The position numbers were made by a program, and so were the translations under genes. Positions 5,913 through 16,752 of a stretch of DNA of 64,000 nt are shown here, one piece after another (position 1 is the stretch's first letter; every line of letters starts with the position of its first letter). The notes beneath the pieces were generated by a model. The model saw nothing but the letters and a program-made list of their open reading frames with translations, searched no databases and had not been told where the DNA came from. Source of the stretch: a virus (taxonomy: Duplodnaviria; Heunggongvirae; Uroviricota; Caudoviricetes). The stretch lies in the IMG/VR virus record IMGVR_UViG_3300031418_000001; one strand, given 5' to 3'.

Positions 5913-6456
5913 AGAAGTATACGATGAAGTACAGATTATTGTTCCTGATATTGAAAAGATAATGAAATCATTAACACATTGCGTTAATCATGTTAAGCAT
6001 GAATTTTCATTTGGTAATGGTCGTGTCAATATTAGGGCAATCAATGAGATTGGATTAATTCACTACTACGATAATGAATCTGAACTTACTTATAGTATTG
6101 GTACTTATGGTGTAAACAGTACTCATATCGTTTTAGCTCAGTCTATTAGTGATAATTCTGAATGGTACGTTCAGTCCAAGAAGATCTTTGGCACTGACGA
6201 ATACATGCTAACTGAAAAATTTCTTCATTTAAAAAAGGATGAGTACTTTAATTACTTATTAGGTACTTCAGAAGTAAATCTGAAATACATCATAGGATGT
6301 GCTATAATACTAAAAAAATGGGATTACCCTGTTGATAATGTCATCACATTAGATGCTGAACGAATTGACTCGTTGGGCTTGCATTCACTCGCATGTGCAT
6401 TAGATAAACAAACAAAGAGAATTATAAATGAAAATATCTTCAGTGAAGACATTTAA
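5902..6456 (+). CDS. Paralog family A protein (hypothetical)
   Basis: Motif LKKDEYFNYLLG. Confidence 0.7.
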   Translation: MNIKEVYDEVQIIVPDIEKIMKSLTHCVNHVKHEFSFGNGRVNIRAINEIGLIHYYDNESELTYSIGTYGVNSTHIVLAQSISDNSEWYVQSKKIFGTDEYMLTEKFLHLKKDEYFNYLLGTSEVNLKYIIGCAIILKKWDYPVDNVITLDAERIDSLGLHSLACALDKQTKRIINENIFSEDI

Positions 6457-6841
6457 AAGTAAGGTTCTGGAAGCTGTTCAATTGATTTATGATGCATCAA
6501 TTAAACCAAAGGCACATGATAAGTACAAACAAATGGGAATTCAAGTACACCGCTATGATCGTTATAAACGTCATAGAGGAAATATAGAGACATGTAAAGT
6601 ATTGTTCTTTTATAACAATGGACAGTCATGTTTTTGCTGTAACGGTAATGATTTAAATTTATCAGAAATTGATAAAGGAACATTTTTCAATGCAAGAATA
6701 ATGGATCAAAGTTTTAGAAGAATGTACATGGAGTGTGTAGCAACTGAACTGAATAAAAGGTTCAATTATAAACAAAGATATGAACAGGAATATATGGTTT
6801 ATATTGATGAATTACTAAAGTACTTGAAGATTAGTTTATGA
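6428..6841 (+). CDS. Paralog family A protein (hypothetical)
   Basis: Motif IDKGTFFNARIMD. Confidence 0.65.
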   Translation: MKISSVKTFKSKVLEAVQLIYDASIKPKAHDKYKQMGIQVHRYDRYKRHRGNIETCKVLFFYNNGQSCFCCNGNDLNLSEIDKGTFFNARIMDQSFRRMYMECVATELNKRFNYKQRYEQEYMVYIDELLKYLKISL

Positions 6842-7335
6842 AGACAAAATTAACTGATGTTAAACATATCAATAAGATTTCTAAGAAAATGGATGATTTA
6901 ATAATGTACGCTGTTAAGTACATTCATCGTGAATCCATGCGTAGAATAAAACATAACAACACAAAAAAGTTGTACTTTTATAAGAATCATAAAGATCCTT
7001 CAATAATTATGGCTCAGTACGGTTGTAATACTCTGTTCAGCTTTAGCTATCTTAAAGTATATACTCCAGCTTATTCCACAAAAACAATAACCATAGGTGA
7101 TCATTGCATGGACTTAAAGGAATATGATAAGAGTGATATTTTTAGTTTAAGTACTTTATATGATATTGAACTTTTGAAATGGTTACAGGTTGGTTGTAAA
7201 ATGAAAGAATCTCATCTTAGAAATATATCTATTCTGAATTCAATATCAGAGCAATTAGTGAATGAAGCACATTCAGCTTATCAAACACAGTACCATGAAA
7301 TTGACAAAGAAAAGTTTCATATATATCAGGGATAA
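6838..7335 (+). CDS. Paralog family A protein (hypothetical)
   Basis: Motif YDKSDIFSLSTLYDI. Confidence 0.75.
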   Translation: MKTKLTDVKHINKISKKMDDLIMYAVKYIHRESMRRIKHNNTKKLYFYKNHKDPSIIMAQYGCNTLFSFSYLKVYTPAYSTKTITIGDHCMDLKEYDKSDIFSLSTLYDIELLKWLQVGCKMKESHLRNISILNSISEQLVNEAHSAYQTQYHEIDKEKFHIYQG

Positions 7336-12599: not shown

Positions 12600-13308
12600 A
12601 TTTGCATATGGTGCTCGGGAATTCAAACACTGGAGTGCTTCATATAATAATTACCAACAGACGTTGCGTGATGTTATTACTGAATGGGGTGCACAGCATT
12701 CCAGAGGTGGTAATGGAAGCACTCAATTAATTAAAATCAGTGATTCATTATTATTTGGCTTAGTTACATCTGGTCTGCCAACGGACTGTATTCTTTATTA
12801 CGATGTACTTGGAAAGAAAATGTACTTAACTGGAAGAATCAGTAATATCTATGATTACCGTAATAACAACATGGGTTATGCCAAAACCACAGGCCATTCA
12901 AAATCACCACATGATTCATTTGATTGGGGTGAATGTTATCGTCAAGGTGATTCTGATTTTTGTTTTGAAGTTCCTGATGAGTGTTTTGAAGATTTCTATG
13001 ATGAAATCAAGCCATATTATGAATATGATTTTAAAAAATGTTTGACCGAGTTATGCGGTATTTCATTCAATTGTATTGTTGATGAAAGTCCTGCACCATC
13101 ATCAGGAATGAACACAAGAGATGCATTTTACCTTGATTGTACTTCATGGTTTTGGGAAGTACTTATGTATGATATGTATGAAGGTAATTTATATCAAGAG
13201 TACTTGAATGCTTACCCACGAACGGTTGAACCACTTGTTAACCTTATAACAAACGTACAAAATTACTTCTTGACACATGGACAAAATAGTTATGACCCGA
13301 GAGATTAA
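12589..13308 (+). CDS. Hypothetical protein
   Basis: 239-aa ORF, 11-nt overlap. Confidence 0.75.
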   Translation: MLIEFAYGAREFKHWSASYNNYQQTLRDVITEWGAQHSRGGNGSTQLIKISDSLLFGLVTSGLPTDCILYYDVLGKKMYLTGRISNIYDYRNNNMGYAKTTGHSKSPHDSFDWGECYRQGDSDFCFEVPDECFEDFYDEIKPYYEYDFKKCLTELCGISFNCIVDESPAPSSGMNTRDAFYLDCTSWFWEVLMYDMYEGNLYQEYLNAYPRTVEPLVNLITNVQNYFLTHGQNSYDPRD

Positions 13309-14353
13309 CCCAACCAAGATTAACCATATCGAACACCTTGACGATATGGTACTCTATAATCCTGATTTATGTATTCAGCATCTTGAACGTGTTCAAGCTG
13401 GATTGGAATATGCAACTCTTAAGTGGGATGGTTCACCAAGCATTATTGTAGGAAAGAAAGACGGTAAATCATTTGTCAGTACTAAATCATTCTTTAATAA
13501 AGAACCTTTAAAACTGAGTACTTATGATGAAATTATCGAACGCAATTACAGTACTGAATTAAGCGTGATTATGTTTATTGCTCTTAAATTTGCTCAGAGT
13601 ATTAATGATAATATTGTATATCAGGGTGATGTTATGTTCTGCCCTGGAAATAATAAAAATGTACAAGATGATAAAATTACATTCGGCTTAAATCTTATCA
13701 AGTACTATGTTACACCTGCATGTCCTAATTTTAACAAAATCAAAAATGCCAATCTTGGTATTGCTTTTCATACAGCATATGATTATTCAGAAGATACAGT
13801 GACCAAAATTCCTTTTGATATTTTACCTGAATGTACTGAAGATGTTTATGTATTTGAATCTTATTGTATTAATTTACATCATAATCAGTTTTCATTTCAG
13901 GATCTGACTGATGAAGTACTGAGAATTAAACTATTTCAGGAAAGTGCATCATGTGATTTAAAAGTATTTCATGAGTTGTTCCGTAAGTACAAGACACAAT
14001 CACTTAAGTTATATGATGATGTTGCCCGTTATAATCCTGATGAATTTGAGAAATTCTGTTTCCAGTGCACTGCACCTAAGTTGTTTGAGGGAGCACATCA
14101 GGCACGGGAGAACTGTTTAGCGAAACTTCAAGAACTAAATACCGTACTCAAGAAATGCAGAAAGTACTTTCAGATGCTTTGTGCTTTTACACATAAAGCA
14201 CAAGCACATGTTATTCATAATGTAGGGTACACACAAGGTTATTTTATTGAAGCTGAACATGAAGGTTTAGTTGTTAGTACAAATCAATATACTATCAAGT
14301 ACGTTAATAAGTACGAATTTACTAAAAAGAATAATGATAAGCGTGTAAAATAA
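13277..14353 (+). CDS. DUF6267-like protein with KxDG (ligase/nucleotidyltransferase motif I-like)
   Basis: HIEHLDD, LKWDGSPSIIVG, FVSTKSFFNK, YQGDVMF, LGIAFHTAY and EGLVV match my recollection of the phage DUF6267 family. Confidence 0.6.
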   Translation: MDKIVMTREINPTKINHIEHLDDMVLYNPDLCIQHLERVQAGLEYATLKWDGSPSIIVGKKDGKSFVSTKSFFNKEPLKLSTYDEIIERNYSTELSVIMFIALKFAQSINDNIVYQGDVMFCPGNNKNVQDDKITFGLNLIKYYVTPACPNFNKIKNANLGIAFHTAYDYSEDTVTKIPFDILPECTEDVYVFESYCINLHHNQFSFQDLTDEVLRIKLFQESASCDLKVFHELFRKYKTQSLKLYDDVARYNPDEFEKFCFQCTAPKLFEGAHQARENCLAKLQELNTVLKKCRKYFQMLCAFTHKAQAHVIHNVGYTQGYFIEAEHEGLVVSTNQYTIKYVNKYEFTKKNNDKRVK

Positions 14354-14356
14354 TCC

Positions 14357-14385
14357 TGAAACATATTTCATTTATGTGCTATACT
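14357..14385 (+). promoter_or_regulatory. TGAAAC-N17-TATACT promoter (copy 3), driving the candidate ncRNA
   Basis: TGAAAC 14357-14362, ATGTGC-TATACT 14380-14385. Confidence 0.8.
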
Positions 14386-14389
14386 AATA

Positions 14390-15146
14390 GTGAGGACATA
14401 TAACTGTTCTCACTTTCAAAACCCTGACTGGCAGTTTAAACACTGATAATAAAAACCTGATCCTATCGAAAAGTAGATGGCAGATGAGTTGTCCAGACAG
14501 AACGCAGTGCAAAAGAAACCCGTGTAAATTACTCCATGCGACTATACAAAACAGCAGAGGACACGGCAATGCGGCACTATAAAGGCGAAAGATAATACAA
14601 GTACTCGCCCATGATAGACATATAAGGATCGCACCTTACGAACATGTATAAGGGATTCTATTACTTATAATAGATTTAGCGACGGAAATTGTACAATATA
14701 AATCCGTCTTTAATTCATAAGTACTTAGAAGTGTATCTGGAGAATTCGTGTACTTCAGGTATATAGAGTAGTGATGAACTACGACCGTTGCATAAGGATT
14801 ACGATAGGAAGAAACAGGGCAACCCGCTTCCGCTTAGATACAGAAGTACAATGAAGTTGTATCTAAAATTCGGTACATGAAATGTCGATGCTACCAGCGT
14901 CAAAATTAAACCTTTAGAGTACTTAAACTCTGAATCCTTTCCCCCTTGCGGGGGATGGAAATGTCTCTACAAACCCCGTCAATGAGTACTGTAAAAGTTT
15001 AATTACTAATTAAATGAAGTTCATCAAGAAATGAACGTAGTGAATTTCGTATGAACGAATTTAGGATTAGCTGAACGTCAGTTCAGATGAGCCTTGTATT
15101 AAGAACACCAAGAGAGAAGCAAGTTTTTGTTTCTCTCTTTTATTTT
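14390..15146 (+). ncRNA. Candidate large (~750 nt) structured non-coding RNA, class unassigned
   Basis: No + strand ORF of 60 aa or more; bounded by a promoter and a terminator; more than 12 hairpins, several with G-U pairs; long-range helix TCCTATCG(14461-68)/CGATAGGA(14802-09). Confidence 0.7.
15110..15146 (+). terminator. Intrinsic terminator closing the candidate ncRNA
   Basis: AAGAGAGAAGCAA-GTTT-TTGTTTCTCTCTT-TTATTTT (13 bp, one G-U). Confidence 0.8.
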
Positions 15147-15157
15147 GTGGATTATAA

Positions 15158-15661
15158 ATGCGATACAGATATATTGGTTTTGATGGAATTGAAGTACCAG
15201 GTCATGTCCTAAATAAAAAACCACTAAATGGTTATAAAGTGGTTTACCAACCAAGTGGTTGTCTGTGGCGAATATCGGAAATGATTAATTCAGAAAGTAC
15301 TGGATTAGAGATAAAATTCTGGCCGAGTAAAAAGAACAATACTGTTAACTGGATAAAGTACGAACGTACTGGTCTTAATATGTGGTACAATACAGCAGGT
15401 AATCTTGACCAAGTTATTCATGAGTTTAAAGACAAGAAACACGGTGAATGTTATTTTATTGGACAGAACTTACGTAGATTTTATTTTGAAGATAATGACA
15501 TTACAAATGATATTGTTGAACTGGTTAATGATATTGAGAATTTAAACGCTGAAGATAAGTTCAATATCTTCATCAGATATGGTTCAGAATTCAAATTATA
15601 TGATGAGTACATGCACCATATTAGTCTTGAAGACATAATTAAAATATGTGATAAAAAATAA
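15158..15661 (+). CDS. Hypothetical protein, probable paralog family A (weak motif)
   Basis: NAEDKFNIFIRYG..ISLEDI. Confidence 0.65.
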   Translation: MRYRYIGFDGIEVPGHVLNKKPLNGYKVVYQPSGCLWRISEMINSESTGLEIKFWPSKKNNTVNWIKYERTGLNMWYNTAGNLDQVIHEFKDKKHGECYFIGQNLRRFYFEDNDITNDIVELVNDIENLNAEDKFNIFIRYGSEFKLYDEYMHHISLEDIIKICDKK

Positions 15662-15671
15662 GGAAATTAGC

Positions 15672-16244
15672 ATGGAAGCTAAGAAAAATAAAAAGGCAAA
15701 GAGTAAAAGTACTACAAGTACCAAACGAGATATGAGTGTACATTTCACATCTAAGTCACAAACGTGGAATACACCTAAAGATTTTTTCGATAAGTTAGAT
15801 GCTGTATGGGGTTTTGAAGTTGATACTGCATGTCTTGAAGAAAGTGCATTATGTAAAGAGTACTTCACTCCTGAAACTGATGGTCTTAATTCATCATGGA
15901 ATAACAAAGTATGCTGGAATAACCCACCTTATAATGATATTAAATCATGGACACAGAAGTGTTACGTTGAGTTTATTGCGGGTAGTACAGTAGTACAGTT
16001 GATTCCATCAAGAACTGATACTAAAGCATTCCATGATTATGCATTTGAATATGCAACATGTATTTGCTTTATTAAAGGCCGTTTAAAATTTGATAACCCA
16101 AGTTTACCGTCATGGACAGAAGATGATTCACACAAGAAAAGTCCTGCACCTTTCCCTTCATGTCTGGTGATTTTTGATAATGACCTTACTGATGAGAAAA
16201 TGAAAGTACTGAAAGCCTTGGGTACAGTCGTTAAGAAGGTATAA
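15672..16244 (+). CDS. dam: DNA N6-adenine methyltransferase (phage Dam-like family)
   Basis: W-x-TP start, WNNPPY catalytic motif, LIPSRTDT..FH, GRLKF. Confidence 0.85.
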   Translation: MEAKKNKKAKSKSTTSTKRDMSVHFTSKSQTWNTPKDFFDKLDAVWGFEVDTACLEESALCKEYFTPETDGLNSSWNNKVCWNNPPYNDIKSWTQKCYVEFIAGSTVVQLIPSRTDTKAFHDYAFEYATCICFIKGRLKFDNPSLPSWTEDDSHKKSPAPFPSCLVIFDNDLTDEKMKVLKALGTVVKKV

Positions 16245-16245
16245 T

Positions 16246-16752
16246 ATGTTAATAAATGGGATAAGAATATTACTTGATAATTTACTTACCTGCTTGAAAT
16301 ATGTAGAAGGTGATAACGTTAGTCACGGTTTAAACGAACTTTATTATCATTTCAATGATAATGTCTGTATTAAAAATAAACGTGATGATATTCATTTTTG
16401 GAGAGAATCTTTAAACTACGAACATGATTCATTGGTTATATGTACTGATGAATTCGATGAAGAACAGTTGTGGATTGCTCTCAATGATGATAGTACTGGA
16501 TTAACAATTTTTCCACGAATAAGGAATGAGCATTTTAATTCATTGGTGATTAATACAACAAGTTTGATATTACGTATTAATCACCAAAATGATATCATTT
16601 ATGACATTCCTATTACATCGGATGAGTACTTCAATATAACTCTTCTTTATGATATTCCATACAGTCTTGAAGAGTTTGTAGAAATACATTCATTCCTTGT
16701 TGAGAATAAAAAAATTATGAAGCAGTACTCTGTAATGTTGGAGGTTTCATGA
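16246..16752 (+). CDS. Paralog family A protein (hypothetical)
   Basis: Motif ITSDEYFNITLLYDIPYSLEEF. Confidence 0.75.
   Translation: MLINGIRILLDNLLTCLKYVEGDNVSHGLNELYYHFNDNVCIKNKRDDIHFWRESLNYEHDSLVICTDEFDEEQLWIALNDDSTGLTIFPRIRNEHFNSLVINTTSLILRINHQNDIIYDIPITSDEYFNITLLYDIPYSLEEFVEIHSFLVENKKIMKQYSVMLEVS

Follow-up and report, generated by a model that had tools for sequence, protein, structure and literature searches.

A candidate family of large, pseudoknotted non-coding RNAs in RaK2-like jumbo phages and bacterial islands

Our analysis indicates that the interval 14390-15146 on the + strand of the window (the whole 64,000-nt stretch of phage DNA that was analysed) is very probably the gene of a large non-coding RNA, with a core of ~560 nt and a transcript of ~750 nt, for which we have no transcript data. 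Comparison of its copies shows that evolution has conserved the predicted fold, not a reading frame. The initial annotation of this stretch, made from its letters alone, had proposed an undescribed large structured phage RNA, and this proposal stands: there is no Rfam match at the gathering threshold, and the covariation is strong and survives in held-out sequences. Our study adds what could not be seen from a single locus, namely that the RNA belongs to a multicopy family, that its gene was captured by bacterial islands and that there is a divergent second subfamily. We found no trace of the family in the RNA databases and literature searched.

The interval is the longest ORF-free gap of the window, as had been noticed at the outset. 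The longest stretch uncovered by ORFs of at least 80 aa is 14354-15157 (804 nt), the longest uncovered by ORFs of at least 60 aa is still here (14570-15157), and each of the six frames of 14390-15146 contains 8-20 stops. No open frame was found in any copy of the RNA that we examined. The promoter and the 13-bp terminator attributed to the gene are both present. The former is a host sigma-70-type early promoter at 14357-14385 (+), made of TGAAAC (14357-62), N17 and a TG-extended TATACT (14380-85), and TG(A/G)AAC-N17-TATA(A/C)T is found at the equivalent place in every aligned copy from other phages. All ten occurrences of the TGAAAC/TATACT motif class in the window are on the + strand, from which we take it to be the ordinary early promoter type of the phage; sites matching TG(A/G)AA(C/T)-N16-18-TATA(A/C)T lie on the + strand at 6281, 8242, 8971, 10925, 14357, 28890, 31469, 40558, 44333 and 56161. 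The -10 box is directly followed by a leader hairpin of 9 bp, including one G-U, and then UUU (14390-14413, +), presumably akin to the promoter-early-stem-loop layout of T4-type phages; the hairpin is variable and absent from some copies. The intrinsic terminator (15110-15146, +) has a 13-bp stem (15110-15139), a 4-nt loop and a T run. No other terminator-like site was found within 13000-16500, and the next gene begins at 15158, 18 nt past the stem.

The interval has a GC content of 0.379, against 0.334 in the window. It folds better than shuffled sequences, and better as the + strand (z -5.55) than as the - strand (z -3.75), although no more than 20 shuffles stand behind either value. In a wastewater metatranscriptome, two 151-nt contigs from relatives overlap 14563-14684 and 14887-14977; these may derive from DNA, and contigs cannot show transcription. 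Pieces of the RNA locus were also present in three other possibly-RNA runs, with flanks mostly uncovered, and here too DNA in the libraries is possible.

Some properties of the surrounding DNA are worth recording. The gene upstream of the RNA (13277-14353) encodes a 358-aa DUF6267 protein (1e-33) with a KxDG motif and ends 3 nt before the RNA promoter. The tetranucleotides CTAG and GCGC are absent from the window (195 and 48 expected from base composition), as are GGTACC and CGTACG, and GTAC is 3.2-fold over-represented (623 vs 195 expected). The absence of CTAG and GCGC and the excess of GTAC suggest strong restriction-site avoidance or sequence-specific DNA modification. GUAC loops of the RNA were considered as a sponge motif and discarded, since the density of GTAC is no higher in the RNA than in the whole window.

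The fold model comprises 16 helices and 70 pairs, and four of its interactions cross other helices: P1 with P3, PK2, PK3 and PK4. The helices were derived from 48 copies of 12 phages and held after the addition of 34 IMG/VR copies. Coordinates refer here to the + strand of the single full copy in the window, in which the ~560-nt core (14420-14985) is followed by a 3' module. The 5' domain of the core (14420-14655) is supported by covariation. It starts with P1 (14424-28/14496-500), which has an A-A mismatch in the window copy and whose 3' strand is enclosed by P3 (14488-90/14501-03), forming a pseudoknot. P2 (14462-67/14476-80) carries the conserved loop GAAAAGUA. In P3 and P4 (14506-10/14574-78), canonical pairs reach 100% and each position has 2-4 pair types. 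Then come P5 (14520-23/14563-66), the pseudoknot PK2 (14569-71/14619-21), P6 (14584-89/14604-09), where five of five pairs covary, P7 (14623-26/14635-38) and the invariant UAAGGGA (14649-55). The next helix, P8 (14656-60/14726-30; 94% canonical, 4-6 pair types), closes a variable insert (14656-14730) that contains the ACAAUAUA-AUCCGUC module with its hairpin (14681-86/14703-08), and this module recurs at a second site in other copies.

The 3' domain (14734-14985) is the most conserved part of the RNA and the one common to the type II subfamily described below. The loop of P9 (14734-42/14753-61) pairs with a strand 125 nt downstream to form PK3 (14745-51/14875-81), a pseudoknot of 7 bp that is 99% canonical and occurs in at least eight sequence variants. 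P10 (14768-72/14778-82) is followed by PK4 (14787-91/14819-23), in which GUUGC pairs into the loop of P13 and which is 100% canonical. The remaining helices are P12 (14800-04/14870-74), P13 (14807-11/14827-31), P14 (14834-43/14857-66), P15 (14887-91/14897-901) and P16 (14940-45/14950-55). The window sequence is complementary in every one of these helices, including PK3 and PK4, the mismatch in P1 being the sole exception.

The statistics of the 70 pairs show, within the limits of what aligned sequences can establish, that the + strand RNA is predicted to fold into two domains held by at least four pseudoknots. Canonical pairs make up 96.3% of the cells, and 56 pairs have changes on both sides. 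Pairing is kept in 87.0% of the 1223 cells that depart from the most frequent pair, whereas the changed cells pair in at most 40.8% of cases in column shuffles and in 13-20% when the partner is slid. Because an alignment of the kind scored here had also served to choose the helices, we repeated the test on held-out sequences. Of the cells in 23 IMG/VR copies, none of which reaches 95% identity to a training copy, 95.1% are canonical, and 85.8% of the changed ones pair; for 10 bacterial-island copies, whose identity to the training copies does not exceed 79%, the values are 95.7% and 85.2%. This lessens the circularity of the test but leaves the kinship between sequences. RNAalifold, run on the 3'-domain alignment, predicted 34 pairs, 25 of them with compensatory changes. 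The non-canonical pairs identify the strand: G-U exceeds A-C by 412 to 133 overall, by 61 to 0 in P9, by 53 to 0 in P13 and by 76 to 4 in P10. Such an excess implies that the structure was selected in the + strand RNA, not in the DNA, which agrees with the RNA-level structure on this strand inferred initially.

Most of the local stems seen in the initial annotation are thus found again in the family. Across it, covariation supports AGTGC/GCACT, CCGT/ACGG, GGCGA/TCGCC, TAAG/CTTA, TATCTGGAG/CTTCAGGTA, GTAGT/ACTAC and the base of TTAGATACAG/TTGTATCTAA. The stem TCCCCC/GGGGGA is conserved, its only change being from C-G to U-G. The stem TCTATTA/TAATAGA can form in the window copy, but the family supports the long-range P8 instead. 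Pseudoknots had been suspected and four exist, but they differ from those proposed. There is no support for the long-range helices TCCTATCG/CGATAGGA and CCCTG/CAGGG: they are 70% and 74% canonical, and only 41% of their changed cells pair, which is the level of the shuffles. The alternative partners of AATCCTT fare no better, as the two that were tested are 63% and 40% canonical. The segments of these rejected pairings are engaged elsewhere, in P2, P12, P13 and P1.

Two further features recur along the family. The word CGUCAA occurs twice in the window copy, at 14898-903 and at 14977-82. In every sequence the 3' strand of P15 equals a word near the 3' end of the core: CGUCAA in the window, CGUCAG in phage BF and others, and ACGAAG in type II. 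The twin elements agree in their choice of A or G in all 27 type I sequences, with matching changes in the 5' strand of P15. They change together and are identical instead of complementary. They may be a switch based on alternative pairing or two identical binding sites. A look for a target of the twin CGUCAR elements gave nothing, as their complement, YTGACG, is not enriched in the window. The 3' module (14986-15109) consists of an AT-rich spacer (~14986-15018) and two hairpins, and this order of elements is repeated after most copies. The first hairpin presents the conserved loop GAACGUAGUGA (loop 15033-43, stem 15028-32/15044-48), which reads GAACG(U/A)AGUGA across copies, and the arms of the last hairpin (15071-76/15081-86) vary between copies yet stay complementary. 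The observations on the 3' module were made by eye, without a statistical test.

The RNA is a trait of one group of phages. In blastn searches, 71 phage records matched it, all of them jumbo phages of ~350 kb of the RaK2/GAP32/PBECO4/BF/XaC1 type, whose hosts include E. coli, Klebsiella, Salmonella, Erwinia, Yersinia and others. Scans of IMG/VR and metagenomes with core motifs found it almost only on contigs of the RaK2-like group; an IMG/VR search with the 167-aa protein encoded downstream revealed no related loci. The resulting collection has 82 phage copies and 10 bacterial-island copies, plus the type II sequences from metagenomes. An nhmmer profile of the family matches 14412-14987 of the window with 348 bits (E 1e-105; positions 26-533 of 537), the window copy being included in the profile, and 48 of 48 copies from 12 phages match it over its full length. 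The window DNA is near-identical to phyllosphere and plant metagenome contigs, and among cultured phages Xanthomonas phage XaC1 is closest to it. The RNA shares 76% of its nucleotides with its counterpart in XaC1, a higher identity than that of the flanking proteins (49% and 27%). The gap that holds it is syntenic in XaC1, BF, fHe-Yen9-04, GAP32, PBECO4 and XbC2, where a small gene and a Dam methylase gene lie downstream of it.

Genomes of the group carry four to five full-length, co-oriented copies; the window has one copy. The genome of Serratia phage BF, which was read whole, has exactly five, at 30.3, 93.0, 174.5, 258.8 and 335.3 kb. In a separate part of this genome (269-319 kb), ARAGORN predicts a single cluster of 29 tRNA genes that includes a tRNA with the CUA (amber-reading) anticodon (289666-289741). 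Successive copies are 52-86 kb apart in BF, Yen9-04 and 7t3, which is more even than random (P 0.002-0.02; 0.07 in XaC1). These genomes are syntenic, however, and their spacing amounts to about one observation. In the phylogenetic tree, each positional copy is retained as a separate ortholog across genera, and all five XaC1 copies cluster together. The genes downstream of the copies are unrelated between positions. For most copies the next gene is co-oriented and usually follows without a terminator, the 3' module lying 10-40 nt before its start. At the copy next to endonuclease VII, the genes ahead run in the opposite orientation and the RNA is closed by a terminator, which suggests that there the RNA itself is the product. 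Some copies are adjoined by HNH endonuclease genes.

Six metagenome contigs match only the 3' half of the profile in spite of ample flanks. When aligned together, they show a different 5' domain, which has diverged beyond detection by nhmmer, a homologous 3' domain and the promoter TGTTATAAT. We call them type II; they are absent from cultured phages. PK3, P10 and P12 are retained in type II through further compensatory variants. The survival of the 3' domain indicates that it is the core of the family, and type II thus narrows the conserved core to ~250 nt, a convenient target for structure work and compensatory-mutation tests. On one type II contig (L231), the RNA is again directly preceded by a DUF6267 gene (6019-7128; 24% identical), and a Thg1-like gene lies another 2 kb upstream. 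DUF6267 was considered as a universal protein partner of the RNA; its absence from BF, GAP32, PBECO4 and 7t3 means that it is not a general one.

The RNA has also left the phages. A full-length copy with its promoter is present in two of 5426 complete E. coli genomes and in nine other Enterobacterales genomes; no plasmid holds one. Island copies keep both promoter and fold. They reside in small integrative islands of shared layout: an integrase, the RNA, a cI/S24-type repressor on the other strand, an HTH_35 protein and a protein of 190-290 aa of no known family, with an LprI-like protein in some. We recognised no replication gene in these islands, found no phage homologs of their conserved 286-aa protein and obtained no PADLOC match for their core proteins. 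The maximum likelihood tree nests the E. coli island copy within the endonuclease VII-side group of BF/GAP32-type phages (support 0.96). Another six island copies make up a separate clade (1.0), close to the copies of XaC1 and the window, and two from Serratia join neither group. These separate and well-supported placements imply that the gene was captured at least twice. In E. coli EEC_W5, the RNA-bearing island (~11 kb) is integrated beside ffs, the 4.5S RNA gene, and contains ~700 nt of further non-coding DNA with TTATCGATCG repeats. Its cargo is DuOB, DUF488 and mSLOG-DUF4326, of which DuOB and DUF488 match the PADLOC candidate system PDC-M45.

Comparisons with known RNAs yielded likenesses but no relatives. 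Neither the window nor any of 18 related loci has an Rfam match that reaches the gathering threshold, and searches at E up to 10 gave only chance-level partial matches (VqmR with 24.7 bits against a cut-off of 76, CRISPR repeats and snoRNAs). GOLLD, ROOL, OLE, raiA and HEARO were not among the Rfam matches of the window at E up to 10. Rfam models of group I and group II introns, RNase P RNA and tmRNA found no match and ARAGORN found no tmRNA, so that the absence of hallmarks of these RNAs noted initially is borne out. Our searches of the literature and of Rfam found no description of the family. The RNA resembles tmRNA in having several H-type pseudoknots in series, but it has neither a tRNA-like domain nor a tag reading frame. 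ROOL and GOLLD are large ornate RNAs of phages and prophages, with Rfam families of their own, that form RNA-only cages as seen by cryo-EM (bioRxiv 10.1101/2024.12.08.627333). Like them, the present RNA is phage-borne, non-coding, of 0.5-0.8 kb, rich in helices and pseudoknots and of unknown function. Unlike them, it comes in four to five diverged copies per genome with their own early promoters, the BF copies are not next to the tRNA genes, and there is no match in sequence or structure. Phage PA5oct, a relative of the RaK2 group, has two ORF-free early lncRNAs, ncRNA001 and ncRNA002, which are abundant (~5% of phage reads) and promoter-less by annotation (PMC7318152). They share with our RNA the lack of ORFs, and they are highly transcribed. 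We rejected them as homologs, because nhmmer at maximum sensitivity found nothing across the region holding both.

The function of the RNA is unknown, and any account of how it works has to be inferred. Our best guess, which we hold with no more than even confidence, is a trans-acting early RNA particle or RNP. The RNA would form a stable and compact early particle, either with proteins or as an RNA-only assembly like ROOL and GOLLD. Its working core would be the 3' domain, from P9 to P16, which would show invariant unpaired segments and the two identical YCGUCAR elements to a partner supplied by the host or the phage, none having been identified. The several gene copies would serve dosage, and islands would carry the gene because RNA and promoter make a self-contained unit that matters during infection by jumbo phages. 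We favor action in trans because of the degree of structure, the discrete gene from promoter to terminator, the terminated copy facing opposed genes and the capture of the gene alone by islands. Yet, there is no direct evidence separating trans from cis, no transcript has been shown and no partner is known. Furthermore, dosage explains neither why the copies are spaced fairly evenly (P 0.002-0.07 per genome) nor why they are retained as positional orthologs across genera. Both traits are better accommodated if the RNA acts in cis and each copy is a replication origin, where the early transcript hybridises to the AT-rich stretch just downstream (R-loop) and primes the leading strand. The islands would then be satellites that pirate the replication of the jumbo phage via its origin RNA, in agreement with a content of integrase, cI-like repressor, HTH protein and cargo without a recognisable replication gene. 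The AT-rich spacer lies where it should, directly after the core, and the co-orientation of the copies fits as well. The T4 origins oriF and oriG and RNA II of ColE1 are precedents for origin-primer transcripts: they are promoter-driven RNAs (~0.5 kb for RNA II) with an AT-rich stretch downstream, and T4-type genomes have several dispersed, co-oriented origin sites. These precedents are not conserved pseudoknotted folds, however, and four pseudoknots with invariant joining regions exceed what known primer RNAs need. The window copy and others end in strong terminators, the five BF copies show only a weak and inconsistent step in GC skew (percentiles 26-95), the spacing counts for little among syntenic genomes and there are no origin data. 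We see this account, origins and satellites taken jointly, as the chief rival to a particle acting in trans, unlikely without being far-fetched.

The remaining explanations have less in their favor. Many copies may be made as long leaders, since most lack a terminator before the next co-oriented gene. Together with the conserved 3' module 10-40 nt before the start of that gene and the early promoter directly upstream of every aligned copy, this could point to a long cis-acting 5' leader, which would either antiterminate the polymerase in the manner of HK022 put RNA or control the stability or translation of the downstream early gene. We find this quite improbable: the genes that follow the different copies are unrelated, the endonuclease VII-side copy is opposed and terminated, the window copy is terminated before the next gene, and ~560 nt with four pseudoknots go far beyond known leaders of this kind. 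The pseudoknots, the conserved unpaired nucleotides and the number of copies per genome also evoke a large ribozyme or what is left of a self-splicing or mobile RNA, similar to group I or group II, that spread by mobility, and the HNH endonuclease genes beside some copies and the clustering of the XaC1 copies could be read likewise. Such an origin seems very doubtful to us. Even with E relaxed to 10, no intron, RNase P or small-ribozyme model of Rfam matches, the order of helices departs, in our reading, from the P3-P7 scheme of group I, the aligned copies start at their own promoters and not within a gene, the ORFs on either side are separate unrelated genes and not halves of one, and the copies occupy syntenic places across genera. 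Finally, the lack of direct transcript evidence, with metatranscriptome contigs that are partial and possibly DNA, means that there might be no RNA gene at all, but a signal at the DNA level, such as repeats bound by proteins or a hotspot of recombination, or else the remains of a protein gene. This we can hardly credit, since compensatory changes keep 87% of the changed cells paired, G-U is tolerated where A-C is not, which only a single + strand explains, a promoter precedes every aligned copy and no frame is open in any of them.

Whether the RNA proves to be the trans-acting particle that we favor or not, it should matter for how these phages work, because it is more conserved than the surrounding proteins and kept in several copies. 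Very few natural RNAs of comparable size and complexity are known, each worth years of study, and this one is open to direct study because many RaK2-like phages grow in the laboratory. If the copies were origins, they would explain how the replication of a T4-like genome of 350 kb starts. As for the bacterial copies, the repeated capture of the gene by islands points to a role in the conflict between phages and their hosts or between phages and their satellites.
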